DNA of 52,238 nucleotides, from assembly GCA_036310525.1 (NCBI GenBank), contig JAXJRQ010000166.1, positions 1-52,238 of the forward strand. Reading direction: 5' to 3'. Below the pieces are notes generated by a model. That model was not told the origin of the DNA. It ran no database searches and was given only the letters and a program-made list of their open reading frames with translations. Shown in pieces: positions 18,606 to 50,257 of this stretch; position 1 is the first letter of the stretch, and the number at the start of each line of letters is the position of its first letter. The DNA comes from Clostridia bacterium. Lineage in GTDB: Bacteria; Bacillota; Clostridia; UBA1381. Made by a program: the position numbers and the translations under genes.

Positions 18606-18714
18606 ATGCTATATCGCATCCCCCTTCTGTACACAGTTTATATGTTTTTTTCCTTTTATCTTTAAATATAGGGAGCGGCAGTGAAGAATTTCCCCAAGCC
18701 GTTCCCTTATCAGT

Positions 18715-20154: not shown

Positions 20155-20181
20155 TCTTAATCCCCCCTAAACTATTTTTGC

Positions 20182-22476: not shown

Positions 22477-22571
22477 TATTTTATTTCCTTCTTATTATAA
22501 TTTGTTTCTAATCAAGTAAATCCCGCTATCCTTCGGACAGTGGGAAAATCATTTACTTTAAGACATATACA

Positions 22572-23057: not shown

Positions 23058-23067
23058 TAACTTACTC

Positions 23068-34717: not shown

Positions 34718-34765
34718 AATTTTATCCCCTTTCCGTTCATTGCGCTTTTATAAAAAGCAAGAAAT

Positions 34766-34927
34766 TGACAACTCCGTTGTCATGAATTGGTTACCACCAT
34801 AATTTCTCGCTATCGCTCCATGAATTGAATTGCCTGTATCATGCACCGAAGGTGCAATTCATGAAAATTTTAATTTTCAATTCACGCCGTCGGGCAATTC
34901 AATGATTTCATCTTCAATGAAATCATT
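34766..34927. repeat. Cluster of nested inverted and direct repeats in the divergent intergenic region
   Basis: TGACAAC-tcc-GTTGTCA at 34766-34782. CATGAATTG at 34781 and 34819, with its inverse CAATTCATG at 34855. Also gaattgcc (34827) / ggcaattc (34893), tgcacc-gaa-ggtgca (34842-34856), and a perfect 11-bp hairpin aatgatttcat / atgaaatcatt (34901-34927). Confidence 0.5.
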
Positions 34928-35045
34928 ATAGCATATTTTCCCTTTATATACAACCATTAAATTTTTTTATATATTCCCAATATAAGGTAATGTATAAATA
35001 TTTTTAAAAAATTTAGTTGAAAACAGAGAATTTTCGTGAAAACTG

Positions 35046-35074
35046 TCGACAAATCGTATTAAAATTGATATAAT
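35046..35074 (+). promoter_or_regulatory. Candidate sigma-A promoter of the FHA/kinase operon
   Basis: TCGACA (35046-35051), a 17-nt spacer and TATAAT (35069-35074), 30 nt upstream of the first ATG (35104), which has a GGGGGA RBS. Confidence 0.45.
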
Positions 35075-35103
35075 AAATTGATAGTTATTTTTATGGGGGA
35101 TTT

Positions 35104-35502
35104 ATGAAAAGAGGATTGAATGCTGCGTTGGGAATTGTAATCACAGCGGCAGTGTATTTTTTATTTTTTCTGACCGGCATAGGATGCCCTATACGCTTTC
35201 TTACGGGTATTTCGTGCTGTGGTTGCGGAATGACACGAGCGCTGATACGGCTTTTTTCGCTTGATATACAAGGCGCACTTTACTATCATCCGCTTATATT
35301 TTTCATTCCCGTATATGCGGTTTTATTTATAGTCAGAAAAAAATTCAGAGAACCTGTTTTTCGTATTATAACATGGATATTTGTCCTGACATTTCTTGCA
35401 GTTTATTTCACAAGACTCTTTGACCCCGAAAATATAATAGTCACAGCAAACTTAAAGGATGGCTGTATTTTTAAAATCTTACATTATATTATGGAGGGAT
35501 AA
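35104..35502 (+). CDS. DUF2752-family membrane protein
   Basis: Signature Cys cluster GCPIRFLTGISCCGCGMTRA after the first TM helix, and about 4 TM helices. Confidence 0.75.
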   Translation: MKRGLNAALGIVITAAVYFLFFLTGIGCPIRFLTGISCCGCGMTRALIRLFSLDIQGALYYHPLIFFIPVYAVLFIVRKKFREPVFRIITWIFVLTFLAVYFTRLFDPENIIVTANLKDGCIFKILHYIMEG

Positions 35503-35506
35503 TTTT

Positions 35507-36382
35507 ATGATTGAAGAAAGAAGAAGTCTTGGTATGTATATTTTGCTCACGCTTGTAACGTGCGGCATTTATTCTTTTTATTTTTATTATAAATTTGCGC
35601 AGGACATGAATACGGTCTGCGACGGCGACGGCGAACACACAGCCGGTCTCGGATATTATATTCTTTTCAGTTTTCTTACATGCGGAATATATGCATTTTA
35701 CTGGTATTACAAAGTCGGTAACAGACAAGCGGCAAACGGTCCGAGATACGGACTGCACATTCAGGACGACGGAAAAACTATTCTTGTATGGCTTCTCCTT
35801 GGCTCTTTGCTTGCGGGTATAGGCGCATGGATTGCATTGTATCTGATGATTAAAAATCTTAATATGCTTGCACATGCCTACAACAATTCAGGTAATGCGC
35901 ATGCACAGTATAACAATGCACCGAACAACAACTTCAATCAGTATCCGCCTCAGAATTATAACAACTCATACCGTTCAATTTCAAACGACGGCATGAATTA
36001 TTCAAACACGATGGACAGTATGAACACTGCACCGCTGAATTTAAACACTTCATTTCAGACTCAGACAGAACAAAGCTCAGCCGGACTTTACTGCAAAACA
36101 GGCGAATTTGCCGGCAGCACCTTCCCTATTAACATGAACGAAAACATTATAATAGGAAGAGAAATGTCGTGTAATATAAAATTTGATGCAAATACTCCGA
36201 ACGTCAGCCGCAGACATTGCACTGTGTATTTTGACGGACAAGTGTGGATTACCGATAACGGTTCAAGCTTCGGAACATATCTTGATAACGGAACAAGACT
36301 TACTCCCAATGAGAGAGTACCGCTTTCAAAAGGCGAAGGCTTCTATCTCGGCAACAAAAACATCAGTTTCACAATAATGTAA
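35507..36382 (+). CDS. DUF4234-type membrane domain + N/Q/Y-rich linker + C-terminal FHA domain
   Basis: Duplicated TCGIY(S/A)FY(F/W)YYK motif typical of DUF4234. Low-complexity linker at aa 124-188. FHA motifs GREMSCNIKF...VSRRHCTV...SSFGTYLDNG. Start at ATG 35507 (GGAGGG RBS), not 35459. Confidence 0.8.
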   Translation: MIEERRSLGMYILLTLVTCGIYSFYFYYKFAQDMNTVCDGDGEHTAGLGYYILFSFLTCGIYAFYWYYKVGNRQAANGPRYGLHIQDDGKTILVWLLLGSLLAGIGAWIALYLMIKNLNMLAHAYNNSGNAHAQYNNAPNNNFNQYPPQNYNNSYRSISNDGMNYSNTMDSMNTAPLNLNTSFQTQTEQSSAGLYCKTGEFAGSTFPINMNENIIIGREMSCNIKFDANTPNVSRRHCTVYFDGQVWITDNGSSFGTYLDNGTRLTPNERVPLSKGEGFYLGNKNISFTIM

Positions 36383-36388
36383 AAAATC

Positions 36389-37309
36389 ATGGATAATTAC
36401 AAAACTACGGCAAAAATACTTATAGCAGTTAATATCATACTGATTACGGCGACGGCAATTTTGCTTGTCGGCTATAGTTTAAAAAAATCAAAGGAAACAA
36501 CGTCCTCACCTGCACCAACTGCACAGGTGACGGCACAGCCGACTCCTTCGGTTACTCAACAACCTACACCTATCCCTACAAGTCAGGCAAAAAAGGCAAC
36601 AATCAGACAGTTCCTGAAAAATGCTGCCAAGCCCATAGGCAGTACAATGTATGTATACGGTGGCGGCTGGAACAAAGAGGATACGGGCGCAGGCGAATAT
36701 GCCCGTACATTGGGTGTTCCTCAGGAGTGGAAGGATTTTGCAGTGCTTCAGGACAGTACGTATGACAGTTCAAAGCATAAATACGAAATAACAAAAGGTC
36801 TTGACTGTTCAGGATATGTCGGTTGGGCGCTGTACAACACTCTCGAAACAGAAAACGGTAAACCCGGATATGTATTCCTTGCTCAGTCTTATGCCGACAT
36901 CCTTTCCGCAATGAATCTGGGCGAAAAAACAGCAAAGCAAGATGTCGGAAGCTATAAACCGGGCGATATATTGAGCTCAGCCGAGGATGAACATGTGTGG
37001 ATTGCTATCGGAGAATGCAGTGACCACAGCGTTTTACTGTTTAACTGCACTCCTCCCGGAGTATCTCTCTACGGCACAGCAACTCCTGACGGAGAAAAGA
37101 ACAGTATGGCTGTAAGGCTTGCTAAAAAATATATGCGTGAACATTTCCCGCAGTGGTACGGGAAATATACAAATTATGCACGTGGCACATCGTATCTCAC
37201 AAACTATGACCGTTTCAGATGGGATATGAAAAGCAGCGGCGTTATGTCTGACCCTGACGGGTACTACAATCTTACGCCCGAACAAATTCTTGACGATATA
37301 TTTAATTGA
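36389..37309 (+). CDS. Membrane-anchored NlpC/P60-superfamily (papain-like) cell-wall hydrolase candidate
   Basis: N-terminal TM anchor and a Pro/Thr/Gln-rich linker. YVYGGGW...GLDCSGYVGWALY (catalytic Cys context), then PGDIL...EHVWIAIG..DH (His). An insertion between the GG and DCSG blocks makes it atypical. Confidence 0.5.
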   Translation: MDNYKTTAKILIAVNIILITATAILLVGYSLKKSKETTSSPAPTAQVTAQPTPSVTQQPTPIPTSQAKKATIRQFLKNAAKPIGSTMYVYGGGWNKEDTGAGEYARTLGVPQEWKDFAVLQDSTYDSSKHKYEITKGLDCSGYVGWALYNTLETENGKPGYVFLAQSYADILSAMNLGEKTAKQDVGSYKPGDILSSAEDEHVWIAIGECSDHSVLLFNCTPPGVSLYGTATPDGEKNSMAVRLAKKYMREHFPQWYGKYTNYARGTSYLTNYDRFRWDMKSSGVMSDPDGYYNLTPEQILDDIFN

Positions 37310-37323
37310 TAAGAGGTTATAAA

Positions 37324-38982
37324 ATGGACAATTTAAACAGACTATGTAAAGGATGCATGCAGTTTACTGCCGAAAATGGCGTCTGCCATGCGTGCGGATT
37401 CAACGAACACACACATAATCCACTGCCGCATCATCTAAAACCCGATACAATTCTTGGCGGAAAATATATTCTCGGCAGAAAAATCGGTGAAGGCGGTTTC
37501 GGAATTACTTATATGGGACTTGACCTTAATCTTAATATGCGTGTTGCAATCAAGGAATACTTCCCGTCGGGATGCGTGACACGTAACACCGATGTTTCCA
37601 ATACGATAACCGTTTTTGACGGTGAGCCTTTGAAGATGTTTGAGCACGGACGTGACAAATTTATTGAAGAAGCAAGAACAATCGCACAGTTTCAGGACAG
37701 TGACGGTATTGTTTCGGTCAAGGACTTTTTCCTCGAAAATGGAACAGCTTATATTGTAATGGAATATCTTGACGGCGAAAACCTCAAGGATTTTCTTGCA
37801 AAGAGAGGCGGAAAAATAAGTGTTGACGAAGCATTAAAAATGGTACGACCTATTTTATCGTCACTTTATCAGCTCCACAAAAACGGACTTATTCACCGTG
37901 ACATAAGTCCCGATAATATTATGATTACCAAAAAGGGCAAGGTTAAGCTGATAGATTTCGGTGCGGCACGAGATGTTAATATCAACAAGAGCCTTTCTAT
38001 TCAGCTAAAACCCGGCTATGCTCCTGAAGAGCAGTACAGAACTCACGGCAAACAGGGTGCATGGACTGATGTTTATGCTCTTTGCGCAACTATCTACAGA
38101 ATGATTACGGGAATAGTTCCCGAAGAATCAAACGAGCGCCTGATTGAGGACCATTTAAAGACCCCTTCATCCATGGGTATTAATATCCATCCGCAGACAG
38201 AACAATTGCTTATGCAGGGACTGGCAGTGAGGTATACGGAAAGAGTGCAGAATATAGAAACGCTTTATAATGCATTTTATAAAGGTGCTTCTGCACCTGC
38301 TTCAAGAGGTTTTTCGCAACCACCTCAGCCTGTATCCATAAATAATACACCGCAAAAAAGTAAGTGGTTTGCTATTTCGCTTATCTTGGCAGGCTGTGCA
38401 GTTCCACTTTTGCTTGTTGTTGTGATTTTTGCCACAATCAGCGTGTACAATGCAAACAACACTCCTGACCCGACTATTGAGCCAATCAGTACAGTTATCC
38501 CTGCAACGGAAGCCCCGGCAACTCCTGCACCGACACCGGTACCTTTGCCGCCACGTCAGGATTTGTACAATGCCTCATATACATACAAGCGTATGAGTGA
38601 AATACATTCTTCATATCTTGCAAGTGATGAAGAATTTTATGAGCTCAGAGAAACAATTCTTGATTTTAATTATAAATGTACAGACTACATAAATAACGGA
38701 AATATGTCTGTGTTTATGTATTTAAGACCCGACACAACCGCATATAATCAGCAAACTAAGTATAAGAAGGACCATCCCACTCTTCGTGAGGTGCTTAATA
38801 ATGTCGATGTTATAAATGCGCGTTATGACGGAAGATGGTACTATTTATGGGTTGCTGAGAACAAAACCGTTACGGAAAACGGCACATCAAAAACAAAAAC
38901 AGACCACTGGGTTTATAAGCTTGAAAGAACAAATACGGGCTTCGTTATTTTAGACTACACCTACGACCCCGCATTTACCTGA
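37324..38982 (+). CDS. Hanks-type Ser/Thr protein kinase 1: Zn-ribbon + kinase + TM + unassigned ectodomain
   Basis: CKGC..x12..CHAC ribbon. Kinase motifs GEGGFG, VAIKEY, HRDISPDN, DFG and YAPEE. TM WFAISLILAGCAVPLLLVVVIFATISVY, a Pro/Thr linker and a 142-aa C-terminal domain. Start at ATG 37324 (AAGAGG RBS). Confidence 0.9.
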   Translation: MDNLNRLCKGCMQFTAENGVCHACGFNEHTHNPLPHHLKPDTILGGKYILGRKIGEGGFGITYMGLDLNLNMRVAIKEYFPSGCVTRNTDVSNTITVFDGEPLKMFEHGRDKFIEEARTIAQFQDSDGIVSVKDFFLENGTAYIVMEYLDGENLKDFLAKRGGKISVDEALKMVRPILSSLYQLHKNGLIHRDISPDNIMITKKGKVKLIDFGAARDVNINKSLSIQLKPGYAPEEQYRTHGKQGAWTDVYALCATIYRMITGIVPEESNERLIEDHLKTPSSMGINIHPQTEQLLMQGLAVRYTERVQNIETLYNAFYKGASAPASRGFSQPPQPVSINNTPQKSKWFAISLILAGCAVPLLLVVVIFATISVYNANNTPDPTIEPISTVIPATEAPATPAPTPVPLPPRQDLYNASYTYKRMSEIHSSYLASDEEFYELRETILDFNYKCTDYINNGNMSVFMYLRPDTTAYNQQTKYKKDHPTLREVLNNVDVINARYDGRWYYLWVAENKTVTENGTSKTKTDHWVYKLERTNTGFVILDYTYDPAFT

Positions 38983-39004
38983 TAAAAAGGAGAGTATACA
39001 CACG

Positions 39005-40663
39005 ATGAAAGATATTAGTACACTTTGTACAGCCTGTATGCAGGATAAAGGAGACGCTGTTATCTGTCCGCATTGCGGATACAACAGCAACGCCGAAACT
39101 CCGGCACATCATCTTAACCCCGGTACAATTCTTAACGGAAAATACTGGGTCGGAAACGCAATTGGTGAAGGAGGTTTCGGAATTACATATATAGGCTATA
39201 ACCTCAATCTTGAAATCAAGGTTGCGATTAAGGAATACTTCCCTAACGGACTTGTTTCAAGAGACACGACAAACACCGATACAGTAACGATTTTTTCAGG
39301 CTCTACACAGCAGATGTATGAGCAGGGACGTGATAAATTTGTCAATGAAGCAAAAGCACTTGCAAAATTTGATAATCTTGAGGGTATAGTTTCCGTAAAG
39401 GACTTTTTCATGGAAAACGGAACGGCGTATATCGTAATGGAATATGTTGAAGGCGAAACCTTAAAATCCTTCCTCAAGAGAAACGGCGGTAAAATAGCAC
39501 CTGAAAACATGTTTGTGATGGTGAAGCCGCTTATGAAGTCACTTGCCGAAGTTCATAAAAAGGGACTTATTCACCGTGATATAAGTCCGGATAATATTAT
39601 GATTACAACCGATTCAAAGGTAAAGCTTCTTGATTTCGGTGCGGCACGTGACATAAGCGCAAACGGAAATAAAAGTCTTTCCATACAGTTAAAGCCGGGC
39701 TATGCACCCGAAGAGCAATACAGAACTCACGGCAAGCAAGGGCCGTGGACGGACGTCTATTCCCTTTGTGCAACAATATACCGTGCAATCACAGGAGTAC
39801 AGCCTATTGAATCGCTAGAAAGAATTCAAAGCGACGCACTCAAAAAGCCTTCCGAGCTCGGAGTTATGATAGACCCCGTAAAAGAAAATGCACTTATGAA
39901 CGGTATGGAGGTTTTTGCTGACAGAAGATTTCAGAGCGTAAGCGCACTGTACAATGCATTGTTCGGCGAATATTCACCAACGTCAGGCGCAGTTTACAAC
40001 GTACCGCCGCAGACTAACGTACCTCCCGCTCCGCCCGTAAATACTGCACCCGTATACACACCCAAAAAGCCAAATATGGCTTTAATTGCCGCCGCAGCGG
40101 CAGGTGCATTCGTGGTGATGTGCATAATCGTGACGGCAGTTCTGGTAACGGGAAGCTTAAAAAGCAGCAACAATTCCATACAGGAGGTTACGGCTACGCC
40201 CGCAACGCCTGCACCGACCGAAGTACCCGTTCCCGTATTTACGAAGCTTGAAGCCTCCTCAACACGAGGTACGGATATGACATCGGGTGCTCCCGTTGAG
40301 TATTTTCCGGCATACGCAATGGACGGAAATTATGCCACAACATGGTCACCGAACAGAAACGTAAGCCTTACACCTACACTTACACTGCTTGCAGACACAA
40401 AGCAGTACGTGACAGGTATAAAAATGGCAAACGGATATTTCAAGTCGGAAGAAACCTACAGACGAAACAGACGTATCACAAAGGTAACGATTGAGTATGA
40501 GGGCGGTCAGACAACCCGAAACTTCGGAATTGACCAGTACAGAATCATGCAGGATATACGCTTTGACGTACCCGTTATGACTTCATACATAAAAATCCAC
40601 GTCCTTGATACGCACTACGGCGACTGGAAGGATATATGTATCAGCGAAATTGAGGTTTACTAA
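39005..40663 (+). CDS. Hanks-type Ser/Thr protein kinase 2: Zn-ribbon + kinase + TM + discoidin-like (F5/8 type C-like) ectodomain
   Basis: CTAC..x12..CPHC ribbon. The kinase core is highly similar to kinase 1, including HRDISPDN. The ectodomain reads AYAMDGNYATTWSPN...ITKVTIEY...YIKIHVLDTHYGDWKDICISEIEVY, resembling discoidin/glycan-binding jelly-rolls. Exactly 552 aa, the same as kinase 1. Confidence 0.9.
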   Translation: MKDISTLCTACMQDKGDAVICPHCGYNSNAETPAHHLNPGTILNGKYWVGNAIGEGGFGITYIGYNLNLEIKVAIKEYFPNGLVSRDTTNTDTVTIFSGSTQQMYEQGRDKFVNEAKALAKFDNLEGIVSVKDFFMENGTAYIVMEYVEGETLKSFLKRNGGKIAPENMFVMVKPLMKSLAEVHKKGLIHRDISPDNIMITTDSKVKLLDFGAARDISANGNKSLSIQLKPGYAPEEQYRTHGKQGPWTDVYSLCATIYRAITGVQPIESLERIQSDALKKPSELGVMIDPVKENALMNGMEVFADRRFQSVSALYNALFGEYSPTSGAVYNVPPQTNVPPAPPVNTAPVYTPKKPNMALIAAAAAGAFVVMCIIVTAVLVTGSLKSSNNSIQEVTATPATPAPTEVPVPVFTKLEASSTRGTDMTSGAPVEYFPAYAMDGNYATTWSPNRNVSLTPTLTLLADTKQYVTGIKMANGYFKSEETYRRNRRITKVTIEYEGGQTTRNFGIDQYRIMQDIRFDVPVMTSYIKIHVLDTHYGDWKDICISEIEVY

Positions 40664-40684
40664 TCATCGGAAAGGATGATATTT

Positions 40685-41464
40685 ATGATAACAAAACAGA
40701 CAATTAATATGGACGACAGTCCGCATCTGATAACGCCCTATAACGCACAGCACATCGGCAGACGTGATGAACAGCAGGACTACTTTGCGTTTTCGGACAT
40801 ATACAACGCCGAGGAATACAACCGCATAGGTGCACTTGCAATTCTTGCGGACGGAATGGGCGGTCTTGAGGGCGGAAGACTTGCAAGCCGCACTGCAACA
40901 GAGGTTTTTCTCGATATTTATACAAACTGCGAAAGTGAAATTCCCGATATTGACGAAAGACTTGTCTATGCCGCAAAAAAAGCAAATGACGCTGTTGTAA
41001 AGCTTGACGGTGCAGGTACAACGCTGTGTGCAATTGTGATTAAGGATTCACAGCTTCACTGGCTCTCTGTCGGTGACAGCAGAATATATCTTTACCGCAA
41101 CGGCACTCTTCGCCGTCTGAACAAGGAGCATAACTACGAAAATGTGCTTAATGAAAAGGTTGAAAGCGGTGAGATTTCATTGTCGGAAGCGGTAAATGAC
41201 CCAAACCGTGCCGCACTCACAAGCTACATCGGCATTGATGAGCTTGATGAAATTGATATAAACACCGATATTTTTCCGCTGTTTAAGGGTGATTCGGTCA
41301 TGATGTGCTCGGACGGTCTTTACAGAACGCTTTGTGATGAGGAAATGGCATACATCGTGAAAAATGCAGAAGAGGACGTATGTGATTTTCTTATAAGCAA
41401 GGCACTTGAGAAAAATATCGAAACACAGGACAACATTACCGTGGTATTGATGGACGTAGACTGA
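40685..41464 (+). CDS. PP2C (PPM) family Ser/Thr phosphatase 1
   Basis: RDEQQDYF, ILADGMGG, GTTLCAIVI, VGDSRIYLYRNG, MMCSDGL and DNITVVLMDV. Start chosen at ATG 40685 (GGAAAGGA RBS). Confidence 0.85.
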   Translation: MITKQTINMDDSPHLITPYNAQHIGRRDEQQDYFAFSDIYNAEEYNRIGALAILADGMGGLEGGRLASRTATEVFLDIYTNCESEIPDIDERLVYAAKKANDAVVKLDGAGTTLCAIVIKDSQLHWLSVGDSRIYLYRNGTLRRLNKEHNYENVLNEKVESGEISLSEAVNDPNRAALTSYIGIDELDEIDINTDIFPLFKGDSVMMCSDGLYRTLCDEEMAYIVKNAEEDVCDFLISKALEKNIETQDNITVVLMDVD

Positions 41465-41491
41465 TACCGCATTAGCGAAACGGAGAAAATA

Positions 41492-42586
41492 ATGAAAAAG
41501 AAATTATTTGCATTTATAATAACCGTACTGTTGATTTGTATTGAAGCATGCTGCGTTTATGCATCAGATGCTCCCCGTGCGGTAAAAAACGCTGCAAAAT
41601 CGGCAGTTGAGCTTAGTGTCAATACAAGCTTCGGTACAAAAACAGTAACAGCCTTTGCAGTAAACAAAGGCAGTAAAACCAAATATCTCGTTACAAACCT
41701 CTGGGCAATCGAGGGTTATACGGGAGATATTATTGTAAATTCAGGAAACGACGAAACAATAACTGCGACAGTCATTGCGACTGATGAAGTTAAAAATATT
41801 GCGGTTCTTGAATTATCAGGCACGCCTGATGGTGTTAAAAACATAAAAATCAAGGTTACGGATGCCGAAACAGAAACAGAGGTATATACACTCGGTTTTG
41901 CGGCAAAGGACAACGAAGAAACGATTTTTTCAGGTAATATACAGTCATTAAATTTATTTACATCGGGAAATATGTCAGCAGACATTTATCAGGTAAGTGC
42001 TACAGTAAATGACACAAACAACGGCGGTATGCTTCTTGATAAAAACGGAAACCTTCTCGGTTTATGCTTTTATGACGGAAACGCCGACATAAACAAGGCA
42101 ATTACCTCAAAAACAATTGCAGACGTGCTTGACAATCATGACATCGGCTATAAAAAGGCAACTCTTTTGTATCTCTTTATCACAATTTTCATAGTTTTGG
42201 CACTTATTGCATTTGCAGTATGGAGAGTGCTGGAGTTTTTAAAGAGCAAGCGTGAAAATTCACCAATGCTAATCGGAAAAAGCGGTGATTTCCGTTCACA
42301 GAGGATTATTCTTACCTCGGAAAACATCTGCATAGGCCGTGACGCAAAAGCCTGTCAGGTGGTTATAACGAACGACCCAAAGGTGAGCAGATGCCACTGC
42401 AGTATACATTATGATAAATTGAAAAATCTTTTTGTGCTGACGGATTTATCCTCTACACACGGAACATTCATAAACGGCTCAAAAAAGCTTGAAGCAAATG
42501 TTCCCGTATACCTTAATTCAGGCTCAGCATTTTCACTCGGCGGAAATTCAACTGAATTTATTGTAAGCGAAGGAGGGATGCTCTGA
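41492..42586 (+). CDS. Signal peptide + trypsin-like (S1C-like) ectodomain with substituted triad + TM + cytoplasmic FHA
   Basis: The Trypsin_2-like block order is conserved, but TNLW replaces TNaH, NIAVLEL replaces DiAvLk, and TNNGGML replaces GnSGGpl. TM LLYLFITIFIVLALIAFAVW. FHA motifs GRDAKACQVVI..VSRCHCSI..STHGTFINGS. Confidence 0.75.
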   Translation: MKKKLFAFIITVLLICIEACCVYASDAPRAVKNAAKSAVELSVNTSFGTKTVTAFAVNKGSKTKYLVTNLWAIEGYTGDIIVNSGNDETITATVIATDEVKNIAVLELSGTPDGVKNIKIKVTDAETETEVYTLGFAAKDNEETIFSGNIQSLNLFTSGNMSADIYQVSATVNDTNNGGMLLDKNGNLLGLCFYDGNADINKAITSKTIADVLDNHDIGYKKATLLYLFITIFIVLALIAFAVWRVLEFLKSKRENSPMLIGKSGDFRSQRIILTSENICIGRDAKACQVVITNDPKVSRCHCSIHYDKLKNLFVLTDLSSTHGTFINGSKKLEANVPVYLNSGSAFSLGGNSTEFIVSEGGML

Positions 42587-43302
42587 TGCATATTGCAAGA
42601 ATAAGCGGTAAGGGCGGACGTGAGAAAAACGAAGACGCAATCGGACGTCTGAGAAAGGACGGAATGTATTGCTTTGTGCTTGCAGACGGTCTGGGAGGTC
42701 AGGGCAGTGGCGAGGTTGCTTCAGCACTTGCCGTAAAGACTGTGCTTGAATGCTTTGATGCCCATGCCGAGGTTTCGGAGGAAATCATTTATGCCTATAT
42801 CGAAGCGGCACAGAACGCCATCATAGAAGCACGGCTTGAAAATCCACGCTATGCCGATATGGGCACAACCATAACGGTACTTCTTACAGACGAAAAGAAT
42901 GCAGTCTGGGCACACTGCGGTGACAGCCGTATTTACCGTTTCAGGAAAAACAAAATACAGGAAATCACAGACGACCACTCTGTAGCCTTTGCATCATTTT
43001 TAGCAAAGGAAATCAGCTATAACGAAATTCGCACAAGTCCCGACCAGAACAGACTTTTACGCTCATTAAGCGACGGAAGTAAATTCCGTCCCGATATTTC
43101 TGAGCTTATAAAGGTGGATAAGAAAACCGCATTCCTCATGTGCAGTGACGGTTTCTGGGAGTATGTTGACGAGGATTATATGGAGTATACCATAAAAAAG
43201 GCACGCTCTCCCAAAGAATGGCTTGAAGATATGCTCGATGAACGGGCAAGACTTGCTCCTCCCGATGCAGACAACTTCAGCGCTATTGTAGTATTTATCT
43301 GA
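42586..43302 (+). CDS. PP2C (PPM) family Ser/Thr phosphatase 2
   Basis: NEDAIG, VLADGLGG, GTTITVLL, CGDSRIYRF, LMCSDGFW and DNFSAIVVFI. The ATG shares one base with the upstream TGA (TGATG). Confidence 0.85.
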   Translation: MHIARISGKGGREKNEDAIGRLRKDGMYCFVLADGLGGQGSGEVASALAVKTVLECFDAHAEVSEEIIYAYIEAAQNAIIEARLENPRYADMGTTITVLLTDEKNAVWAHCGDSRIYRFRKNKIQEITDDHSVAFASFLAKEISYNEIRTSPDQNRLLRSLSDGSKFRPDISELIKVDKKTAFLMCSDGFWEYVDEDYMEYTIKKARSPKEWLEDMLDERARLAPPDADNFSAIVVFI

Positions 43303-43364
43303 TAATATGTAAATTTTGCAGAGTATTCTGCTTTAATTGTAAAAACGAAAGGAAATGATTAATT

Positions 43365-43949
43365 ATGTCAATGAAAAGATGCAATAACGGACACTTCTAT
43401 GATGATGCAAAGCATCCGTCATGCCCATACTGCGGTATATCCGATATGGACGCTTCAAAAACAATGCCTATTATAGCTCCGGCTTCAAGCGCACCCAAGG
43501 CGCAGGAAACAATAGGCCGCACAGTTGCAATGGCTCCGCAGGAGAGTGCGCCCGGACGTACCTCTGCCGCTGATGAGGGAAAAACCGTTGCAATCATGAA
43601 AAAGGAAAAAGGAATTGACCCCGTTGTAGGCTGGGTTGTTTGTATAGAAGGCCCCTCAAAGGGTCAGGATTACCGCATAAAATCAGAGCGTAATTTCATC
43701 GGCAGAGACTCGTCGATGGACATCGTTATAAGCGGTGATAACACTATTTCAAGAGAAAACCACGCAAGCATCAGCTACAACCCGAAAAACAGCAGTTTCA
43801 GACTGCTCCCCGGTGACAGCCACGGTCTTGTTTACCTTAACGATGAAGATATATATACTCCCACCGAGCTCAAAAAGGGCGATATAATCGAGCTTGGCGA
43901 AACAAAGCTGATATTTGTTCCGTTATGCGAGGGCGGCTTCACATGGTAA
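43365..43949 (+). CDS. Cytoplasmic Zn-ribbon + disordered linker + FHA protein
   Basis: N-terminal CNNGH...CPYCG, an Ala/Pro/Ser/Thr-rich linker, and FHA motifs GRDSSMDIVI...ISRENHASI... Confidence 0.8.
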   Translation: MSMKRCNNGHFYDDAKHPSCPYCGISDMDASKTMPIIAPASSAPKAQETIGRTVAMAPQESAPGRTSAADEGKTVAIMKKEKGIDPVVGWVVCIEGPSKGQDYRIKSERNFIGRDSSMDIVISGDNTISRENHASISYNPKNSSFRLLPGDSHGLVYLNDEDIYTPTELKKGDIIELGETKLIFVPLCEGGFTW

Positions 43950-45412
43950 AAAAACTAAGTATTCTTCTTTGTGCTCTTTTGTGCGCCGTTTCAGTGTCCG
44001 TATCAGCAAATGAGCTGTATTTTGCGGATGTTTTGCAGATGCACTGCTTTTCGGACATTATGCGCACATACGTTGAACTGAGCGATAAAAACTCAAGTCC
44101 CATAGAAAAACCCTCACGTGCGGATGTTGTCGGATATATTGACGGCGTAACGCTTACAACACAAAGCATAAACCGCTTTGGTGATACCGGTGAGGGTACT
44201 GCCGACATATTTCTTGTGGATGTATCAGGCTCAATTAAAAACGCACAGCTTGATAAGGTAAAGAGTGCAATCAAAACATGGGCATCAAACATGAAACCCA
44301 ATGACAGAATTGCTGTCGTTTCTTTTGGTGATTCAATTGAAACTCTGACGGATTTTTCAGGAGATATAAACGCTGTATCCGCCGCCGCTGACAAGCTCAC
44401 AAATCACGGCAGTAAAACACAGCTCTACGGCGGTATTTCACACGCTGTTAAGCTTGCATCAAGAAATGATACAGACTTACCCAAACGCAAAAATATCATT
44501 CTTATAACCGACGGCGTTAATGACTCAAACGGCGGAATAAGTGAAAATGATATGCTCAAAGAACTGAAAACTGCGCTTGTTCCCGTTTACAGTCTGTGGA
44601 TGTCAAACAGCCGTGCCAATAATTCAAAGGGCAGATCAACACTTAATTCTGTTACCGATTATTCGGGCGGAAGAATATATGATATGTCTGATAAGAGTAT
44701 TGAAACCGTATACGGTTGGGTAAAAGACAATATCAACAACTCCTATACCGTTGATTTTGCCTATAACGGCACTGTACCCGATAACAACATTCATAAATTC
44801 AGCATCAAGGTTGCTCAAAACGGAAGGATTTTTGAGGACAGCGTTGATTTTACAATGAAAAAAAGCGAAGAAAGCTCGCACACATACTCCGTTTCAGCTA
44901 CACAAGATGAAGAAACGGACGAAAAAAGTAATATCGGATTTATTCTCATTATAGTTCTGATTGCGGCATTGGTTGCCGGTGCAGCTGTTGCGCTTATCAT
45001 CATTATACGCAACAAAAATAATACGGATGAGTATATTTATCCTATATCCTCCAGCGATTACACTCCGCAAGACGACACAGGAAGCAAAACAATCAATGCT
45101 GACTACACTGCAGCCGTACATAGCACAAATAATGTGGTTTTTGTTTCAATGCGTACAGGAAAAAGAAACAGTATAAGCATTTCGGGAAGCATATTGGCAG
45201 GCAGAAGCGGTCAGTGCGATTTTATTATTGAAAATGATACCGTTTCGGGTAATCATGCAGTAATAACTCTTGCAAACGAAAAGCTGTATGTTGAAGATAT
45301 GACCTCAGCAAACGGAACATTCGTCAACGGCAGAAAAACAAACGGAATTACCGAATTGAAAAACAACGATATTGTTATGTTTGGTAATGAAGAATATAAA
45401 GTAAACTTCTGA
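43943..45412 (+). CDS. Signal peptide + vWA ectodomain (intact MIDAS) + TM + cytoplasmic FHA
   Basis: Signal MVKKLSILLCALLCAVSVSVSA. MIDAS elements DVSGS...GSKTQ...ITDG. TM IGFILIIVLIAALVAGAAVALIIII. FHA motifs GRSGQCDFII..VSGNHAVI..SANGTFVNG. The ATG lies inside the last codons of the upstream gene (7-nt overlap). Confidence 0.85.
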   Translation: MVKKLSILLCALLCAVSVSVSANELYFADVLQMHCFSDIMRTYVELSDKNSSPIEKPSRADVVGYIDGVTLTTQSINRFGDTGEGTADIFLVDVSGSIKNAQLDKVKSAIKTWASNMKPNDRIAVVSFGDSIETLTDFSGDINAVSAAADKLTNHGSKTQLYGGISHAVKLASRNDTDLPKRKNIILITDGVNDSNGGISENDMLKELKTALVPVYSLWMSNSRANNSKGRSTLNSVTDYSGGRIYDMSDKSIETVYGWVKDNINNSYTVDFAYNGTVPDNNIHKFSIKVAQNGRIFEDSVDFTMKKSEESSHTYSVSATQDEETDEKSNIGFILIIVLIAALVAGAAVALIIIIRNKNNTDEYIYPISSSDYTPQDDTGSKTINADYTAAVHSTNNVVFVSMRTGKRNSISISGSILAGRSGQCDFIIENDTVSGNHAVITLANEKLYVEDMTSANGTFVNGRKTNGITELKNNDIVMFGNEEYKVNF

Positions 45413-45446
45413 TATTTTCAAAAATCCGGAAAGGAAAAATTCACTA

Positions 45447-47768
45447 ATGGCTAAACTTCGTAAGGAAAATATTTTAATCGTTATCGACGCCTCTATGGAG
45501 GTTTGTGAAATTGACCTTAATTCGTTTCACAAAAATCGTATAAGCTTTGGCAGAGATGAATCATGCAATATTGTTTTCAAATCACAGATTGTATCAAAAT
45601 GTCACGGATATATTGAGTTTGTTGAAGACAAAATATATTTATACGACAACCGAAGCACCAACGGCATTATCGTAAACGGACACCTTTATAAAACAGCCGC
45701 AAACGGTGATGCAGAGGTGCACAGACTTTGTGACGGTGACATTATAAAGATAGACAACGGTGACCCCAATAACAGCCACAGCCACGGAGTATTGATGATG
45801 TACACCACACGCAAAAGCTCAGGCAGATGGCAGAAATTCAACATTATGAGCAGACAGCGCATCACAATAGGCAGAAGCTCACAGTGCGATTTGCACCTTG
45901 ACAGCATCAGTGTATCACGTAATCATGCGGTGATTACATCCAATAACGGTATGCTGTTTATTGAGGATTTGAACAGCTCCAACGGTGTATTTGTCAATGG
46001 TCACAGAGTTATTGGCCAAACTCAGCTTCACGAAAAGGACATAATCCTTATTGCCCACTCCATGATGATATTCACATCGGGAATGCTTCTGTATAAGCTT
46101 AAAATGGGCGGTACAAGGGTTGTGATGAAGGATATATCCAGAGTTGTAACCGTTAAAAACCAACGTCGCTACATACTTCAGAATGTAAATCTTACGGTTG
46201 AGCCAAACGAATTTATTGCCGTTATAGGCGGTTCAGGTGCCGGCAAATCTACTGTTATGAACGCAATGAGCGGATTTGAGCAGGCAACAAGTGGAAATGT
46301 TTACGTTAACGATACAGATTTATACAAAAACTATCAGGTTCTTAAAAACATGATAGGCTATGTTCCTCAGCAGGATATTATATACGAAAATATCACCTTA
46401 CAGAAAATGCTTGAATACTCAGCAAAAATGCGTATGTCAGAGGACGTAAGCGAAGCCGAAAGACAAAAGCGCATAGCTGAGGTTCTTCAGATGGTTGAGC
46501 TTTCGGAGCATAAGGATAAATTTATCCGTTCGCTTAGCGGCGGTCAGAAAAAGAGAGCAAGTATTGCTGTTGAGCTTCTTGCAGACCCCGGTCTGTTCTT
46601 CCTCGACGAACCCACCTCAGGACTTGATCCCGGAACGGAAGCAAGCCTGATGAATACCTTAAACAATCTCGCAAAGCAAAAGGGCAAAACAATAGTAATG
46701 GTAACACATACTACGCAAAACCTTCATTTGTGCGATAAAATACTGTTTATGGGCAAAGGCGGAAGAATTTGTTTTTACGGCTCACCGGCTGAGTGTATGG
46801 ACTTTTTCGGTGTGGATAATCTTACCGAAATCTATAATAAGGCACTTAGTGATGAGGACGTTAATAAATGGTCGTCAAAGTATCTTCACGAATATGGAAA
46901 TGACACAGGCGATAACAGAAAAAGCACTAACGGAAAAATCCCCGTACAGAAAAAAGCATCATTTATACGTCAGTTTGCGATACTTTCTTCACGCTATATG
47001 ACACTTATCAAAAATGACACACAAAGACTTCTGATGATATTTTTACAGCCAATTATAATCGCATTGCTTATTGCATGCGTGGCAAGCGATGATGTCTTTG
47101 ACATATACAACTCCACAAAATCCATCTTATTCGCAATGTCATGCGCAGGAATTTGGGTCGGATTGTTCAATTCAATTCAGGAAATATGTAAAGAGCGTAA
47201 TATATTGAAGCGTGAATATATGGCAAATTTACGGCTTGGCTCTTATGTACTGTCGAAATTTGCAGTGCAGTTTTTGTTAAGTGCCATTCAGGCATTTATT
47301 ATGACTCTGATGTTTATAATAACTGTAGGCTCACCTGAGAGCGGAGTTGCTTCTGACAGCGCATTTTTTGAAATGTTTATGACTATGCTTCTTACGGTAT
47401 TTTCATCGTCTGCAATCGGTATAGTTGTGTCGGCAATTTCAAAAAACAGCGACAAAGCAATGACAACCGCACCATTTTTACTTATAGTTCAGCTCTTATT
47501 CTCAGGAATACTGTTTGAGCTTAAAGGTGCTACCGAAAAAATCGCATATTTTACGGTCAGCAAATGGTCAGTGTCGGCGTTCGGAACAATAGCTAATCTC
47601 AATGCGCTTGAAATGTCTATACCTAATATGCCTCATGAAGCAGAGGACGTTTACGAATACGTATTCTCCAATATTGCTTCGTCATGGGCGATTATGACGG
47701 CATTTGTAGTAGTTTGCTTTATTGCAAGCGTATTTATACTTAAAAATGTTTCAAAGGATTCAAGATAA
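45447..47768 (+). CDS. FHA-FHA-NBD-TMD fused ABC transporter (ABC-2/ABCG-type half transporter), Rv1747-like architecture
   Basis: FHA1 reads FGRDESCNIVF..VSKCHGYI..STNGIIVNG. FHA2 reads IGRSSQCDLHL..VSRNHAVI..SSNGVFVNG. Walker A GGSGAGKST, signature LSGGQKKR, Walker B LFFLDEPTSGLD, H-loop VMVTHT, and about 6 C-terminal TM helices. Confidence 0.9.
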   Translation: MAKLRKENILIVIDASMEVCEIDLNSFHKNRISFGRDESCNIVFKSQIVSKCHGYIEFVEDKIYLYDNRSTNGIIVNGHLYKTAANGDAEVHRLCDGDIIKIDNGDPNNSHSHGVLMMYTTRKSSGRWQKFNIMSRQRITIGRSSQCDLHLDSISVSRNHAVITSNNGMLFIEDLNSSNGVFVNGHRVIGQTQLHEKDIILIAHSMMIFTSGMLLYKLKMGGTRVVMKDISRVVTVKNQRRYILQNVNLTVEPNEFIAVIGGSGAGKSTVMNAMSGFEQATSGNVYVNDTDLYKNYQVLKNMIGYVPQQDIIYENITLQKMLEYSAKMRMSEDVSEAERQKRIAEVLQMVELSEHKDKFIRSLSGGQKKRASIAVELLADPGLFFLDEPTSGLDPGTEASLMNTLNNLAKQKGKTIVMVTHTTQNLHLCDKILFMGKGGRICFYGSPAECMDFFGVDNLTEIYNKALSDEDVNKWSSKYLHEYGNDTGDNRKSTNGKIPVQKKASFIRQFAILSSRYMTLIKNDTQRLLMIFLQPIIIALLIACVASDDVFDIYNSTKSILFAMSCAGIWVGLFNSIQEICKERNILKREYMANLRLGSYVLSKFAVQFLLSAIQAFIMTLMFIITVGSPESGVASDSAFFEMFMTMLLTVFSSSAIGIVVSAISKNSDKAMTTAPFLLIVQLLFSGILFELKGATEKIAYFTVSKWSVSAFGTIANLNALEMSIPNMPHEAEDVYEYVFSNIASSWAIMTAFVVVCFIASVFILKNVSKDSR

Positions 47769-49276
47769 TGAAAAAACTTTTAATAAGCATCATTACAACT
47801 ATATTATGTGTATTTATGTCCTCTGCGTTTGCAGAGGACATAAATGTTACGGTTAATTCCGAGTATGTGGATTTTGATACTCCACCCGTTATCATCGACG
47901 GAAGAACACTTATTCCCATACGTGCAGTAGCAGAGAAAATCGGTCTGAAAGTTACATGGGATCAGGAAACACAAACCGCCTCCATAATAAACCGTGACAA
48001 AACAGTAAATCTGACTATAGGAAGTAACATTCTTACAGACAACGGTGCAGAATTCACAATAGATGTTGCGCCGCAGATTATAAACGACAGAACATGTCTC
48101 CCCTTGCGTGCCGCCGCAGAAGCATTTGGTGCAAATGTGAACTGGGACGGTGAAAAAAGGCTTGTGGAGGTTAATGTACCGGAAATAAATAAAGTTATTA
48201 AATATCAGGGAACCTTCGGCGAAAATGAGCTTTCGTACATTTACAGCGATGAAATTTTTGATAACACCACAACCGTAAATTACGATTTGGCAAAACTTTC
48301 TGCTGCGGCTGTAATGGCTGCTGAAAGCACCGATTCAATTAAGGATTTTCTTGAAAAATGCGGTTTTGGTGATATAAAAACCTATAACTATGATTCTGAC
48401 TCTTCCATAAAAGAAAATTACCGCCATAAATCCGATTTTACACTTGCACAAAAGGAAATCAGCGGTAAAAATGTTGTTTCGGTTATCATAAGAGGTACTG
48501 CAGGAAACGAGTGGTACAGTAATTTTGATATATCACAAAACAACAAGGAAAGCAACGTTCATTACGGCTTTAATACAGCCGCAGAGGAAATAGTAAAAGC
48601 TGTAACGGAATATGCACCCGATGACAGTCTTATATGGATTTGCGGCTACAGCCGAGGCGGTGCAGTTGCAAATCTCAGCGCAAAAATGCTTACAGACAAG
48701 CGTAAAAAAATCACCGCTTATACCTTTGCCTCGCCAAACACCGTAAAGACCAAAAAGGCAGATAAGAAGGTAAATGTGTACAATTTTGTAAGCGACAACG
48801 ATATAATCACAAAAATCCCGCCATCAGAGGATAAATGGAATTATACCCGCCACGGTACAACCATAGTTCCCGACAATTATTCTGACACGCTCATGAACGG
48901 AAAGTTTCTTGAGCTTACGGGCAGAAATTACAATGCAATACGTGATGAAGATGTCAGGAGCGCTGTCTGTTATATTGCCGATATTGCCGATAATGTTAAT
49001 GACTACTATAATCTGAAGCACGGCGACTATACTCCGTATGAATTTTTTACCGACTGCGTTGTTCCGCTTCTTACAAAAAGCTCTTTTTCGGGTATCAAGC
49101 TCATATTTGATCCCGTCTACGGTAATCTGATGCGATTTTTCCTGCTTCACTCAAGCGGTGAATTTGCACAGCAGTATAAAGACTTTATTACCATAGAAGC
49201 TTATGACGACTGTAACGGCATTGTATATGAGCATTGTATGGAATCGTATTATAGCAAAATTTGCTTCACAAAATAA
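47768..49276 (+). CDS. Secreted copper-amine-oxidase-N-terminal-like domain + class 3 lipase (alpha/beta hydrolase)
   Basis: Signal peptide, then two stalk-domain half repeats (IDGRTLIPIRAVAEKIGLKVTWD / NDRTCLPLRAAAEAFGANVNWD). Lipase_3-like nucleophile elbow ICGYSRGGAVAN (GxSxG). The ATG overlaps the ABC gene stop (TAATG). Confidence 0.75.
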   Translation: MKKLLISIITTILCVFMSSAFAEDINVTVNSEYVDFDTPPVIIDGRTLIPIRAVAEKIGLKVTWDQETQTASIINRDKTVNLTIGSNILTDNGAEFTIDVAPQIINDRTCLPLRAAAEAFGANVNWDGEKRLVEVNVPEINKVIKYQGTFGENELSYIYSDEIFDNTTTVNYDLAKLSAAAVMAAESTDSIKDFLEKCGFGDIKTYNYDSDSSIKENYRHKSDFTLAQKEISGKNVVSVIIRGTAGNEWYSNFDISQNNKESNVHYGFNTAAEEIVKAVTEYAPDDSLIWICGYSRGGAVANLSAKMLTDKRKKITAYTFASPNTVKTKKADKKVNVYNFVSDNDIITKIPPSEDKWNYTRHGTTIVPDNYSDTLMNGKFLELTGRNYNAIRDEDVRSAVCYIADIADNVNDYYNLKHGDYTPYEFFTDCVVPLLTKSSFSGIKLIFDPVYGNLMRFFLLHSSGEFAQQYKDFITIEAYDDCNGIVYEHCMESYYSKICFTK

Positions 49277-49282
49277 ATCAAT

Positions 49283-49316
49283 AAATGTACTCTGAATATT
49301 CAGGGTACATTTTTTG
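49283..49316 (+). terminator. Rho-independent terminator closing the 12-gene operon
   Basis: Stem aaatgtactctgaa / ttcagggtacattt (one G-U pair) followed by TTTT. Confidence 0.65.
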
Positions 49317-49417
49317 AATTTAAGGTATGTTTTTTACAAAAACTATTGACCTCATATTTTTTGCATGCTATAATAAATTTAACAATTTTTCAAAAGATAT
49401 TTATGAGGAGAACAGAA

Positions 49418-50221: not shown

Positions 50222-50224
50222 TAC

Positions 50225-50256
50225 AAAAAAATCCGTCAAAATTGACGGATTTTTTT
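50225..50256. terminator. Bidirectional terminator
   Basis: aaaaaaatccgtcaa / ttgacggattttttt with a 2-nt loop, between convergent genes. Confidence 0.7.
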
Positions 50257-50257
50257 G

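Follow-up and report, generated by a model that had tools for sequence, protein, structure and literature searches.

What kind of system is encoded by a run of genes that brings together two Ser/Thr kinases, two PP2C phosphatases, and six FHA domains, and what might it act on? The question is raised by positions 35046 to 49316 of contig JAXJRQ010000166.1 from a Clostridia bacterium (assembly GCA_036310525.1), the whole 52,238-nucleotide stretch of which is referred to here as the window. A first-pass annotation had described this region as one twelve-gene signaling system with exporter, hydrolase, and lipase outputs. Comparison with related loci bore out the conserved co-orientation of the genes but not an indivisible unit; six of the genes form a cross-phylum core, and the rest are accessory. 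We hold, with moderate confidence, that the region encodes a membrane-spanning Ser/Thr-phosphorylation signaling complex that couples the state of the envelope to local wall and lipid remodeling and to export.

The twelve open reading frames, designated g1 to g12, occupy positions 35104 to 49276 of the + strand, between a promoter-like site and a hairpin/T-tract terminator. The core is g5 to g10, encoding a receptor kinase, two PP2Cs, an S1C-protease-TM-FHA protein (TM, transmembrane segment), a Zn-ribbon-FHA protein, and a vWA-TM-FHA protein, as follows.

39005 to 40663, + strand: g5, Zn ribbon, PpkA-like Ser/Thr kinase, TM, and NADase-type F5/8C ectodomain, the core kinase (Pkinase, 2.9e-32).
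40676 to 41464, + strand: g6, PP2C phosphatase a (PP2C_2, 7.7e-14; motifs DGMGG, GDSR, SDG, and DN).
41492 to 42586, + strand: g7, signal peptide, S1C/HtrA-like pseudoprotease, TM, and FHA (Trypsin_2, 1.1e-11; FHA, 1e-15).
42586 to 43302, + strand: g8, PP2C phosphatase b, with its start overlapping the g7 stop (PP2C_2, 6.8e-20).
43365 to 43949, + strand: g9, Zn ribbon, disordered Thr-bearing linker, and FHA, the adaptor (FHA, 9.7e-11).
43943 to 45412, + strand: g10, signal peptide, vWA, beta-rich domain, TM, linker, and FHA (VWA_2, 1.6e-16; FHA, 1.2e-17).

Close relatives of this set were collected from g10 homologs and a genome scan, which gave 11 loci in uncultured Clostridia, Oscillospiraceae, and Blautia metagenome-assembled genomes (MAGs) from rabbit, Hadza, and other gut samples. 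Their synteny was assessed by tblastn, mapping of open reading frames, and precomputed Pfam hits. The genes were not scattered among these genomes. Instead, the same order recurred in ~10 Clostridia loci at protein identities of 35 to 73%: DUF2752, DUF4234-FHA, (g3), kinase-F5/8C, (M15_4), PP2Ca, protease-FHA, PP2Cb, Zn-FHA, vWA-FHA, (FHA2-ABC), and a Zn_ribbon-TM protein. The last of these is present in all close relatives and absent from the window, where searches for a hidden copy elsewhere, or for kinship with the g4 ectodomain, returned just low-complexity matches.

The core also extends well beyond this clade. It was seen in Desulfobacter, Ructibacterium, Anoxynatronum, and Azospirillum and in sediment, soil, and gut metagenomes, a scan of which found >506 loci. 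The adaptor g9 alone has 535 homologs at E<=1e-5, and those with >50% identity include proteins of Desulfobacter, Desulfamplus, Anoxynatronum, and Ructibacterium. Four neighborhoods illustrate the range of arrangements.

Desulfobacter: Zn-FHA, vWA-FHA, PP2C, trypsin-FHA, PP2C, PrsW-FHA, DUF805-FHA-kinase, kinase-PEGA.
Ructibacterium gallinarum: kinase-F5/8C, PP2C, trypsin-FHA, PP2C, Zn-FHA, vWA-FHA, M15_4.
Locus L016: the same six-gene core plus a PASTA kinase.
Locus L017: kinase-TcaA_5th, kinase-F5/8C, two PP2Cs, Zn-FHA, FHA, FHA2-ABC, Cu_amine_oxidN1-Lipase_3, SH3_3, M14.

A component census of 38 loci of at least 9 kb that carry a Zn-FHA gene, made with hidden Markov models (HMMs) built for this analysis, separated frequent from infrequent members. 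A PP2C was found in 35/38, a kinase in 28/38, a vWA ectodomain in 26/38, and a protease-TM-FHA protein in 25/38, compared to 8/38 for FHA2-ABC, 7/38 for M15_4, and 5/38 each for DUF2752 and DUF4234-FHA. By these comparisons, g1, g2, g3, and g11 were gained at the level of the clade, and the exporter, hydrolases, and lipase are extras specific to it. At the level of sequence, then, two things are established: kinase, phosphatase, and FHA proteins, some transmembrane and some soluble, form a conserved set with intact motifs and fixed gene order, and an association of this set with wall hydrolases is specific to the clade.

Two further arrangements were observed. First, a Blautia MAG (L011, 11969 to 15801) carries a second mini-module after its main cluster, consisting of a PP2C, a Zn-FHA protein, and a kinase with a DUF6273 ectodomain, followed by a DUF2752 gene; this suggests that the PP2C/Zn-FHA/kinase triad is a minimal duplicable unit. 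Second, a remote variant on a Leisingera aquaemixtae plasmid (L098, 9650 to 17580) encodes a kinase, an FHA protein of 448 aa that is 40% identical to g9 over its C-terminal half, a PP2C, a hypothetical protein, and two members of the dynamin family. This arrangement is found again on 12 Leisingera and 5 Ruegeria plasmids.

The spacing of the genes and the signals around them bear on whether the twelve are a set at all. The flanking signals that had been proposed were both found.

35046 to 35074, + strand: promoter-like site TCGACA-17-TATAAT with a TG extension, an 11/12 sigma-70 match.
49283 to 49312, + strand: intrinsic-terminator-like hairpin with a 13-bp stem and a 4-nt loop, then the T-tract TTTTGAATTT.

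The former is the top-scoring + strand promoter match within 34600 to 50400, and the latter lies directly 3′ of the last (g12) stop codon. Recomputed spacings from g1 to g12 are +4, +6, +14, +22, +12, +27, -1, +62, -7, +34, and -1 nt, as tightly packed as previously stated; the +14 value takes ATG 37324, downstream of an AAGAGG site, as the most likely start of g4. The reported start/stop overlaps TGATG at 42584 to 42588 (g7/g8) and TAATG at 47766 to 47770 (g11/g12) are present, and so is the overlap at 43943 to 43949 (g9/g10), except that its 7 nt read ATGGTAA and not TGATG. That these are unrelated units packed by chance on one strand is very hard to credit. Several internal promoter-like sites, a small hairpin at 43318 to 43331, and the differing composition among relatives would favor such packing, but promoter-like sites show just a modest excess (56 observed compared to 41.9 +/- 6.3 in shuffled sequence), three of the junctions are start/stop overlaps, and the same order is kept in independent genomes at 35 to 70% protein identity. 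The hairpin lies in the longest internal gap (43303 to 43364, 62 nt, between PP2Cb and Zn-FHA), is GC-rich, and is followed by TTTAATTG; it could be a weak internal attenuator or processing site.

Pfam backs all of the FHA, kinase, PP2C, vWA, trypsin-like, F5/8C, ABC, and lipase calls. Its tally of six FHA domains in five proteins, two kinases, and two PP2Cs agrees with the first-pass annotation, as do its assignments of the DUF2752 and DUF4234 membrane families, the FHA-FHA-ABC exporter, and the class-3 lipase. Read from the translations, all six FHA domains retain the GR and S-x-x-H signatures, both kinases retain GxGxxG, the VAIK Lys, HRD, DFG, and APE, and both PP2Cs retain the DGxGG, GDSR, SDG, and DN motifs. 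A hydrophobicity scan indicated that g7, g10, and g12 begin with signal peptides, that one TM follows each kinase domain, that g3 is anchored at its N terminus, and that g11 has six TM, in agreement with the expected topology for g3, g4, g5, g7, g10, g11, and g12. When NCBIfam and PADLOC were searched for a named system, the matches were just generic ones to kinase, PP2C, and FHA models, below equivalog cutoffs, which agrees with the view that this is not a characterized operon.

The kinases are the most distinctive of these parts. In addition to g5, a second one is encoded immediately upstream.

37324 to 38982, + strand: g4, Zn ribbon, PpkA-like Ser/Thr kinase, TM, and TcaA-type NTF2-like ectodomain (Pkinase, 5.1e-35).

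Judged by sequence, both kinase domains are specifically like PpkA, the kinase of the T6SS (type VI secretion system). The best PDB match of g4 is PpkA (5hnv) at 165 bits, with StkP, PknA, and PknB at <=85 bits, and g5 matches the same structure at 157 bits, with the next kinases again at <=85 bits. The motifs AIGEGGFG, AIKEY, ENGTAY, HRDISxDNI, LKPGxAPxEQY, and QGPWTD are common to g4, g5, and PpkA. Among the kinases of relatives, an N-terminal CxxC...CxxC is found in 46/65 and the PG[YF]APxEQ signature in 38/65. The system has one or two receptor kinases of this kind, and their ectodomains vary. That of g5, previously called discoidin-like, matches NADase_transloc/F5_F8_type_C (4.2e-15) and passes the NCBIfam NADase_discoid cutoff (71.6 bits compared to 38), and its F5/8C fold is predicted to be of a glycan-binding type. 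That of g4 (~140 aa) had been left unassigned; it matches TcaA_5th at 3.5e-8, above the Pfam cutoff. Orthologs of g5 are present in every complete Clostridia relative (54 to 67% identity), and g4 has a full-length ortholog in L017 (50% identity), a locus that also holds full-length orthologs of g5, g11, and g12. The two phosphatases are conserved to a similar degree, at 50 to 65% for g6 orthologs and 52 to 69% for g8 orthologs.

The history of the g7 S1C module is different from what had been assumed. All three of its triad positions are indeed substituted (W71, N102, and N177 in alignment with Deg1 and DegP, which it matches at 1.5e-8 to 2e-6), and by sequence g7 is a pseudoenzyme. An intact H-D-S triad is, however, found in 19/28 relatives, and triad decay is confined to the gut Clostridia clade, where it takes the forms WNN, RDN, RNS, SNN, KDI, HDD, and HDL. 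Therefore the "sensor" of g7 appears to be a recently inactivated enzyme, and the reading of the trypsin-like module as a sensor does not hold ancestrally: on this distribution the S1C module started out as a catalytically active protease outside the cytoplasm, and decay set in only within the gut Clostridia clade. A further match of the g7 S1C domain is to RsgI9, a clostridial anti-sigma factor, in its sensor domain.

The adaptor g9 is the most conserved protein of the system, with >50% identity across phyla (Desulfobacterota and Clostridia). Its invariant features are C6, H10, C20, C23, T74, DPVVGW, GR, SRxxH, and a C-terminal FxPxCxxxFxW, and T33 is kept at >=90%. An AlphaFold2 (AF2) model places the ribbon at 1 to 26, a disordered segment at 27 to 84, and the FHA domain at 85 to 190. 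T33 and T74, which lie in this predicted-disordered linker, are candidate phospho-acceptors. In g10, the metal ion-dependent adhesion site (MIDAS) is intact, as had been claimed: D93-x-S95-x-S97, T159, and D190 are invariant in 17 orthologs, and DxSxS is retained in 43/45 relatives. A profile of the g10-type vWA-TM-FHA architecture matched 1473 representative proteins at E<=1e-30, mostly end to end. The 7-nt g9/g10 overlap is kept in L001 to L010 and in the distant locus L015.

The genes outside the core, other than g4, are the following. The last entry lies beyond 49316, and the cluster limits proposed earlier were thus too narrow.

35104 to 35502, + strand: g1, DUF2752 membrane protein with 3 hydrophobic segments and a Cys-rich CPxR...CCGCGMTR (PF10825, E=4.8e-16).
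35507 to 36382, + strand: g2, DUF4234 membrane domain, Asn/Gln-rich linker, and C-terminal FHA (DUF4234, 4.4e-27; FHA, 2.3e-14).
36389 to 37309, + strand: g3, N-terminal membrane anchor, Pro/Thr-rich linker, and ~235-aa domain (no family HMM match).
45447 to 47768, + strand: g11, FHA-FHA exporter with a nucleotide-binding domain (NBD) and an ABC2 membrane domain (ABC_tran, 2.9e-30; ABC2_membrane, 2.7e-22; two FHA stretches).
47768 to 49276, + strand: g12, signal peptide, Cu_amine_oxidN1 (wall-associated stalk), and class-3 lipase with GYSRG (Cu_amine_oxidN1, 8.6e-37; Lipase_3, 1.8e-13).
50258 to 51088, - strand: M15_4 (VanY/L-Ala-D-Glu peptidase-type) wall peptidase with a TM anchor and the cytoplasmic tail MDYNEIRK (Peptidase_M15_4, 3.6e-21).

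The M15_4 peptidase is counted as a displaced member of the system because its orthologs (43 to 56% identical) lie within the cluster in L001, L002, L003, L006, L007, L011, and L014 and divergently beside it in L004 and L005, and because the N-terminal motif MDYN[EK][IV]R is common to all copies. Of the remaining genes, g1 is the first cluster gene in L004, L005, L007, and L008; g2, which has a GGAGGG site 8 nt upstream of ATG 35507, is syntenic in the same four loci plus L034; and g3 is syntenic in L003, L004, and L007. The lipase g12 is absent from L001 to L011 and has a 49%-identical ortholog behind the ABC gene in L017.

The g3 domain had been called NlpC/P60-like. Neither Pfam (searched up to E=10) nor NCBIfam nor PDB sequences gave a match to it, and the HMM part of that call falls away. 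What stands is the catalytic signature: among 39 homologs, D139-C140-S141-G142, H202, and D212 are invariant or nearly so (D139-C140, H202, and D212 invariant). The AF2 model (pLDDT 87.8) gave weak Foldseek matches, all of them CHAP/NlpC-P60 structures (2lrj, 5t1q, 2k3a, and 4xcm; E 0.03 to 1.3, TMq ~0.24). From the model and these residues, g3 is probably a divergent papain-fold (CHAP/NlpC-P60-like) cell wall hydrolase whose membership in NlpC/P60 is not established. Homologs number 422, many of them fused to CW_binding (choline-binding), SLH, Cu_amine_oxidN1, or fn3 domains. The C-terminal ~235 aa make up a widespread Lachnospiraceae/Clostridia family outside Pfam coverage with an invariant DC...H...D (proteins P0022 to P0141), a candidate new family of wall hydrolases.

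Envelope enzymes are a recurring feature of the Clostridia versions, namely M15_4, the g3 family, Amidase_3 (TM-anchored, inside the cluster of the Blautia locus), and M14/SH3_3. It is this recurrence of peptidoglycan hydrolases, together with the PASTA kinase in one relative, that backs a role at the envelope. PpkA, too, is part of an envelope-damage-sensing pathway (PMC7817224).

On the signaling-complex reading, the ectodomains would bind cell wall or surface ligands, such as glycan, peptide, or, at the MIDAS, acidic groups, and the state of the ligand would alter kinase activity. The kinases would then phosphorylate Thr residues in disordered cytoplasmic linkers, the candidates being T33/T74 of the adaptor, a TV motif in g10, and, in g11, the Thr between the two FHA domains. 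The six FHA domains would dock on these phosphothreonine (pThr) marks and bring the bitopic proteins together with the adaptor and the exporter, and the two PP2Cs would reset the phosphorylation state. Of the three core pThr readers, g9 is a soluble adaptor, and the two bitopic ones are predicted to expose a vWA/MIDAS domain (g10) or an HtrA-like protease domain, inactive here (g7), on the outer side of the membrane and to keep an FHA domain on the inner side. The outputs, as suggested by gene content at the level of the clade, would be two anchored hydrolases (g3, which is CHAP-like, and the M15_4 peptidase), an ABC-2 exporter that is FHA-gated and resembles Rv1747, and a wall-tethered lipase. 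Writing and reading of pThr on Thr-rich linkers, which had been proposed earlier, finds indirect support in g9 T74/T33 and in the g11 inter-FHA Thr, which is conserved in 8/9 orthologs.

Several observations weigh against this account. First, its ligands, substrates, and outputs are all inferred, and the TV motif in the g10 linker shows no conservation outside the clade. Second, g2 has three hydrophobic segments for which the positive-inside rule gives no clear cytoplasmic placement of the FHA domain, so that a cytoplasmic location, expected for every FHA, is uncertain for that of g2. Third, most relatives have an intact protease, and the S1C module may act as an enzyme and not as a sensor. 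Fourth, the lipase g12 and the second kinase g4 were found in just one other lineage (L017), and g11, with orthologs in 8/11 close relatives, is absent from L001, L004, and L008 while the remaining cluster is intact. Fifth, no recurrent effector family was found among 83 unassigned neighbors of the core. Because no effector class recurs next to the core in the broad family, the role in wall remodeling may hold just for the gut Clostridia clade. Finally, proteobacterial copies of the core lie in islands flanked by integrases or insertion sequence (IS) elements, a setting that fits an accessory or conflict role too.

The patchy presence of g11 also bears on whether the cluster is mainly a regulated export system of the PknF-Rv1747 kind, in which the kinases and FHA proteins would serve to activate the FHA-FHA-ABC-2 exporter of a glycolipid or wall polymer and the other proteins would be helpers. 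The architecture of g11 is identical to that of Rv1747, the Thr conserved in the inter-FHA linker would suit such a switch, and g11 is 60 to 73% identical among relatives, second only to the adaptor. Glycosyltransferase, Wzy_C, and acyltransferase genes follow downstream in L001, L003, and L010. Those glycosyltransferase genes are, however, separated from the cluster by opposite-strand genes and are confined to one sub-lineage, and the exporter is missing not only from the three loci named above but from 30/38 core-holding loci, which makes export as the main function quite improbable. L001 (5962 to 6081) and L003 (8896 to 11214) are otherwise near-identical, and L001 has a 39-aa open reading frame instead of the FHA-FHA-ABC gene; on this sequence comparison, its lack of the exporter looks like a recent deletion.

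The islands bear on the main alternative, which the first-pass annotation had not raised, that the core is a horizontally mobile conflict or defense module sensing envelope attack (phage adsorption, bacteriocins, or competitor enzymes) and responding through protease, hydrolase, lipase, or growth arrest. We regard this as unlikely, and give no better standing to its corollary that the wall hydrolases and lipase are weapons or suicide effectors, with a logic like that of TerY-P or of T6SS "tit-for-tat." In Azospirillum lipoferum 4B, the core on replicon AZO_p4 (L099, 3344 to 4653 and 21188 to 24112) lies between a site-specific integrase and ISL3/IS630 transposases. In Desulfobacter (L012, 1 to 4902), its neighbors are CBASS genes (SMODS/DncV-like, ThiF-JAB), BrxR, and an integrase, and in L015 it adjoins a reverse transcriptase and AAA_15/21 ATPases. 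Transfer is suggested by a distribution that is patchy even though the adaptor is >50% identical across phyla. Lipases, like enzymes of the CHAP/amidase type, are typical effectors against bacteria, and the PpkA-like kinase would also fit. The part list of vWA, PP2C, and Zn-ribbon kinase is, moreover, shared with TerY-P, an anti-phage system (PMC11090510). On the other side, PADLOC yielded no system-level match, a search of 50,697 phage records found no copy of the core, and no nuclease, NTPase, or toxin recurs with it. The Clostridia loci are flanked by housekeeping genes (holA, ileS, EF-G, and aconitase), and the hydrolases are membrane-anchored on the producer.

The same observations can be joined to the signaling-complex reading in a more speculative form, which we put forward tentatively and consider doubtful as it stands. 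In this form, the six genes would make up a hitherto unrecognized phosphothreonine signalosome of the "outside-in" kind, horizontally mobile and cross-phylum, a free-standing relative of the T6SS pathway, that detects envelope damage or attack by vWA/MIDAS capture and protease cleavage leading to FHA clustering. In gut Clostridia, which are T6SS-less, rewiring would have placed wall hydrolases, a tethered lipase, and the exporter under its control.

Around the operon, other features of the window were noted. Upstream, the opposite strand carries holA and an FAD oxidoreductase gene (33518 to 34717), and the 386-nt gap between this divergent gene and the operon promoter contains nested inverted repeats at 34765 to 34935, with pairs such as ATTGAATTGCC/GGCAATTCAAT and AATGATTTCAT/ATGAAATCATT. 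The + strand of this element folds at -46.5 kcal/mol (z = -4.77 against shuffles), and an Rfam search of it gave no family match; it could be an operator array, the leader of either transcript, or a repeat element. Downstream, a gene for a GDSL-family lipase (ATG 49409 to 50221) is preceded by a strong promoter-like site for itself, TTGACC-17-TATAAT at 49346, and shares a 16-bp bidirectional terminator hairpin (50223 to 50258) with the convergent M15_4 gene. Because it has no ortholog among the related loci, this lipase is not counted as a member of the system. Farther away, ~11 kb upstream of the operon, a dcw cluster (13741 to 24000, - strand) encodes mraW, a PASTA-domain penicillin-binding protein (PBP), murE, murF, mraY, ftsW, and murG. 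Its proximity was considered as functional evidence and rejected, as the clusters of relatives do not adjoin dcw genes; the closeness is probably incidental.

The system matters for several reasons. Ser/Thr kinase-FHA signaling is understood in few bacterial systems (PknB/FhaA, GarA, Rv1747, and the T6SS pathway), and the present analysis exposes a large family (>500 metagenomic loci in several phyla) with a fixed core, swappable sensors and outputs, and an unusually conserved hub. It offers a genetic handle on how an extracellular vWA/MIDAS and an HtrA-like protease are coupled to cytoplasmic pThr reading, on the role of a PpkA-type sensing module outside the T6SS, and on autolysin control in uncultured gut Clostridia. 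It also flags a widespread wall-associated Cys-His-Asp domain, the g3 family. Cultured carriers of the system are Ructibacterium gallinarum, Anoxynatronum sibiricum, and Azospirillum lipoferum 4B.

How, finally, does this system compare with those already known? It works like the T6SS pathway, TerY-P, ArnA-ArnB, PknF-Rv1747, and the actinobacterial Fha/PstP/PknAB set, yet it fails at least one defining feature of each. The actinobacterial FhaA/FhaB-PstP-RodA-PbpA-PknA/PknB operon likewise ties kinase, PP2C, and FHA genes to wall metabolism. Nevertheless, no SEDS, PBP, or PASTA gene lies in 35046 to 49316, as the first-pass annotation had stated for these and for secretion-system components and as the Pfam results confirm; FtsW and the PASTA-PBP are at 14.9 to 22.5 kb of the window, in the separate dcw cluster. 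The GarA/OdhI switch resembles g9 in having an FHA domain preceded by a disordered Thr-bearing segment. The conserved g9 T74 was tried in alignment as the GarA ETTS phospho-site, and the positions do not correspond. DRA0331-0334 of Deinococcus radiodurans (bioRxiv 10.64898/2026.01.23.701218) combines vWA, Ser/Thr protein kinase, FHA, and PP2C domain types in one operon, but it is a four-gene unit (vWA, kinase, FHA, and FHA-PP2C) in a DNA-damage context and is without a protease-FHA protein, a Zn-FHA protein, a bitopic vWA-FHA protein, or envelope enzymes.

In Mycobacterium tuberculosis PknF-Rv1747, an FHA-FHA-NBD-ABC-2 exporter is similarly encoded with a kinase and has Thr in its inter-FHA linker (PMC3138270, PMC8339232). 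The g11 linker is only ~12 to 25 aa compared to the long disordered region of Rv1747, and the exporter is here an optional part of a much larger module. ArnA and ArnB of Sulfolobus, which interact in a phosphorylation-dependent manner (PMC6509490), are also encoded by adjacent Zn-finger-linker-FHA and vWA genes, as are g9 and g10, whose conserved 7-nt overlap indicates translational coupling. ArnB is, however, cytoplasmic with a phosphorylated helical C-terminal domain, whereas g10 is bitopic with its own FHA; the g9 FHA is structurally nearest to OdhI/GarA, with ArnA (5a8i) at rank 40 among FHA folds; and the biology of the pair is archaellum repression. The TerY-P triad shares vWA, PP2C, and Zn-ribbon kinase genes encoded together and an intact MIDAS, and it is defined by a TerY-like vWA that is soluble and by a kinase whose Zn ribbon is C-terminal (PMC11090510). 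Here, in contrast, the vWA follows a signal peptide, has a TM segment, and is extracytoplasmic; the kinases span the membrane as receptors and bear their Zn ribbons at the N terminus; the set is enlarged by several FHA proteins and a protease-FHA protein; and ter, McrBC, and CoCoNuT genes are not linked to it.

The closest comparison is with the T6SS threonine-phosphorylation pathway (PpkA-PppA-Fha1-TagQRST of Pseudomonas and Serratia), which senses envelope perturbation (PMC7817224). This pathway had been mentioned for shared domain vocabulary only, and the kinase takes the likeness further, as PpkA is by far its best solved-structure match (5hnv scores about double what any other kinase does). 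Both systems also have a PP2C that opposes the kinase, an FHA protein as reader, a vWA domain exposed beyond the cytoplasmic membrane, and an ABC-type membrane partner. The wiring differs: the vWA is carried by a separate FHA protein (g10) rather than by the kinase, the kinases here have F5/8C and NTF2-like ectodomains, and the ABC protein is an FHA-fused ABC-2 type and not TagS/TagT. In addition, g8 is nearer tPphA and Stp1, its closest solved structures, than PppA (merely 5e-12); TagQ and TagR are missing; the FHA proteins score 26 to 33 bits for TIGR03354 (Fha1/TagH) compared to a cutoff of 120; and no T6SS structural family (Tss, Hcp, or VgrG) is present in the Pfam results of the window or of any related locus. 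Literature searches found no description of the cluster, the literature searched being incomplete and a prior description elsewhere possible; the vWA systems of Kaur et al. 2020 (PMC7159879) are different ones. What these comparisons leave is a conserved and apparently undescribed system that is built of known parts with known logic.

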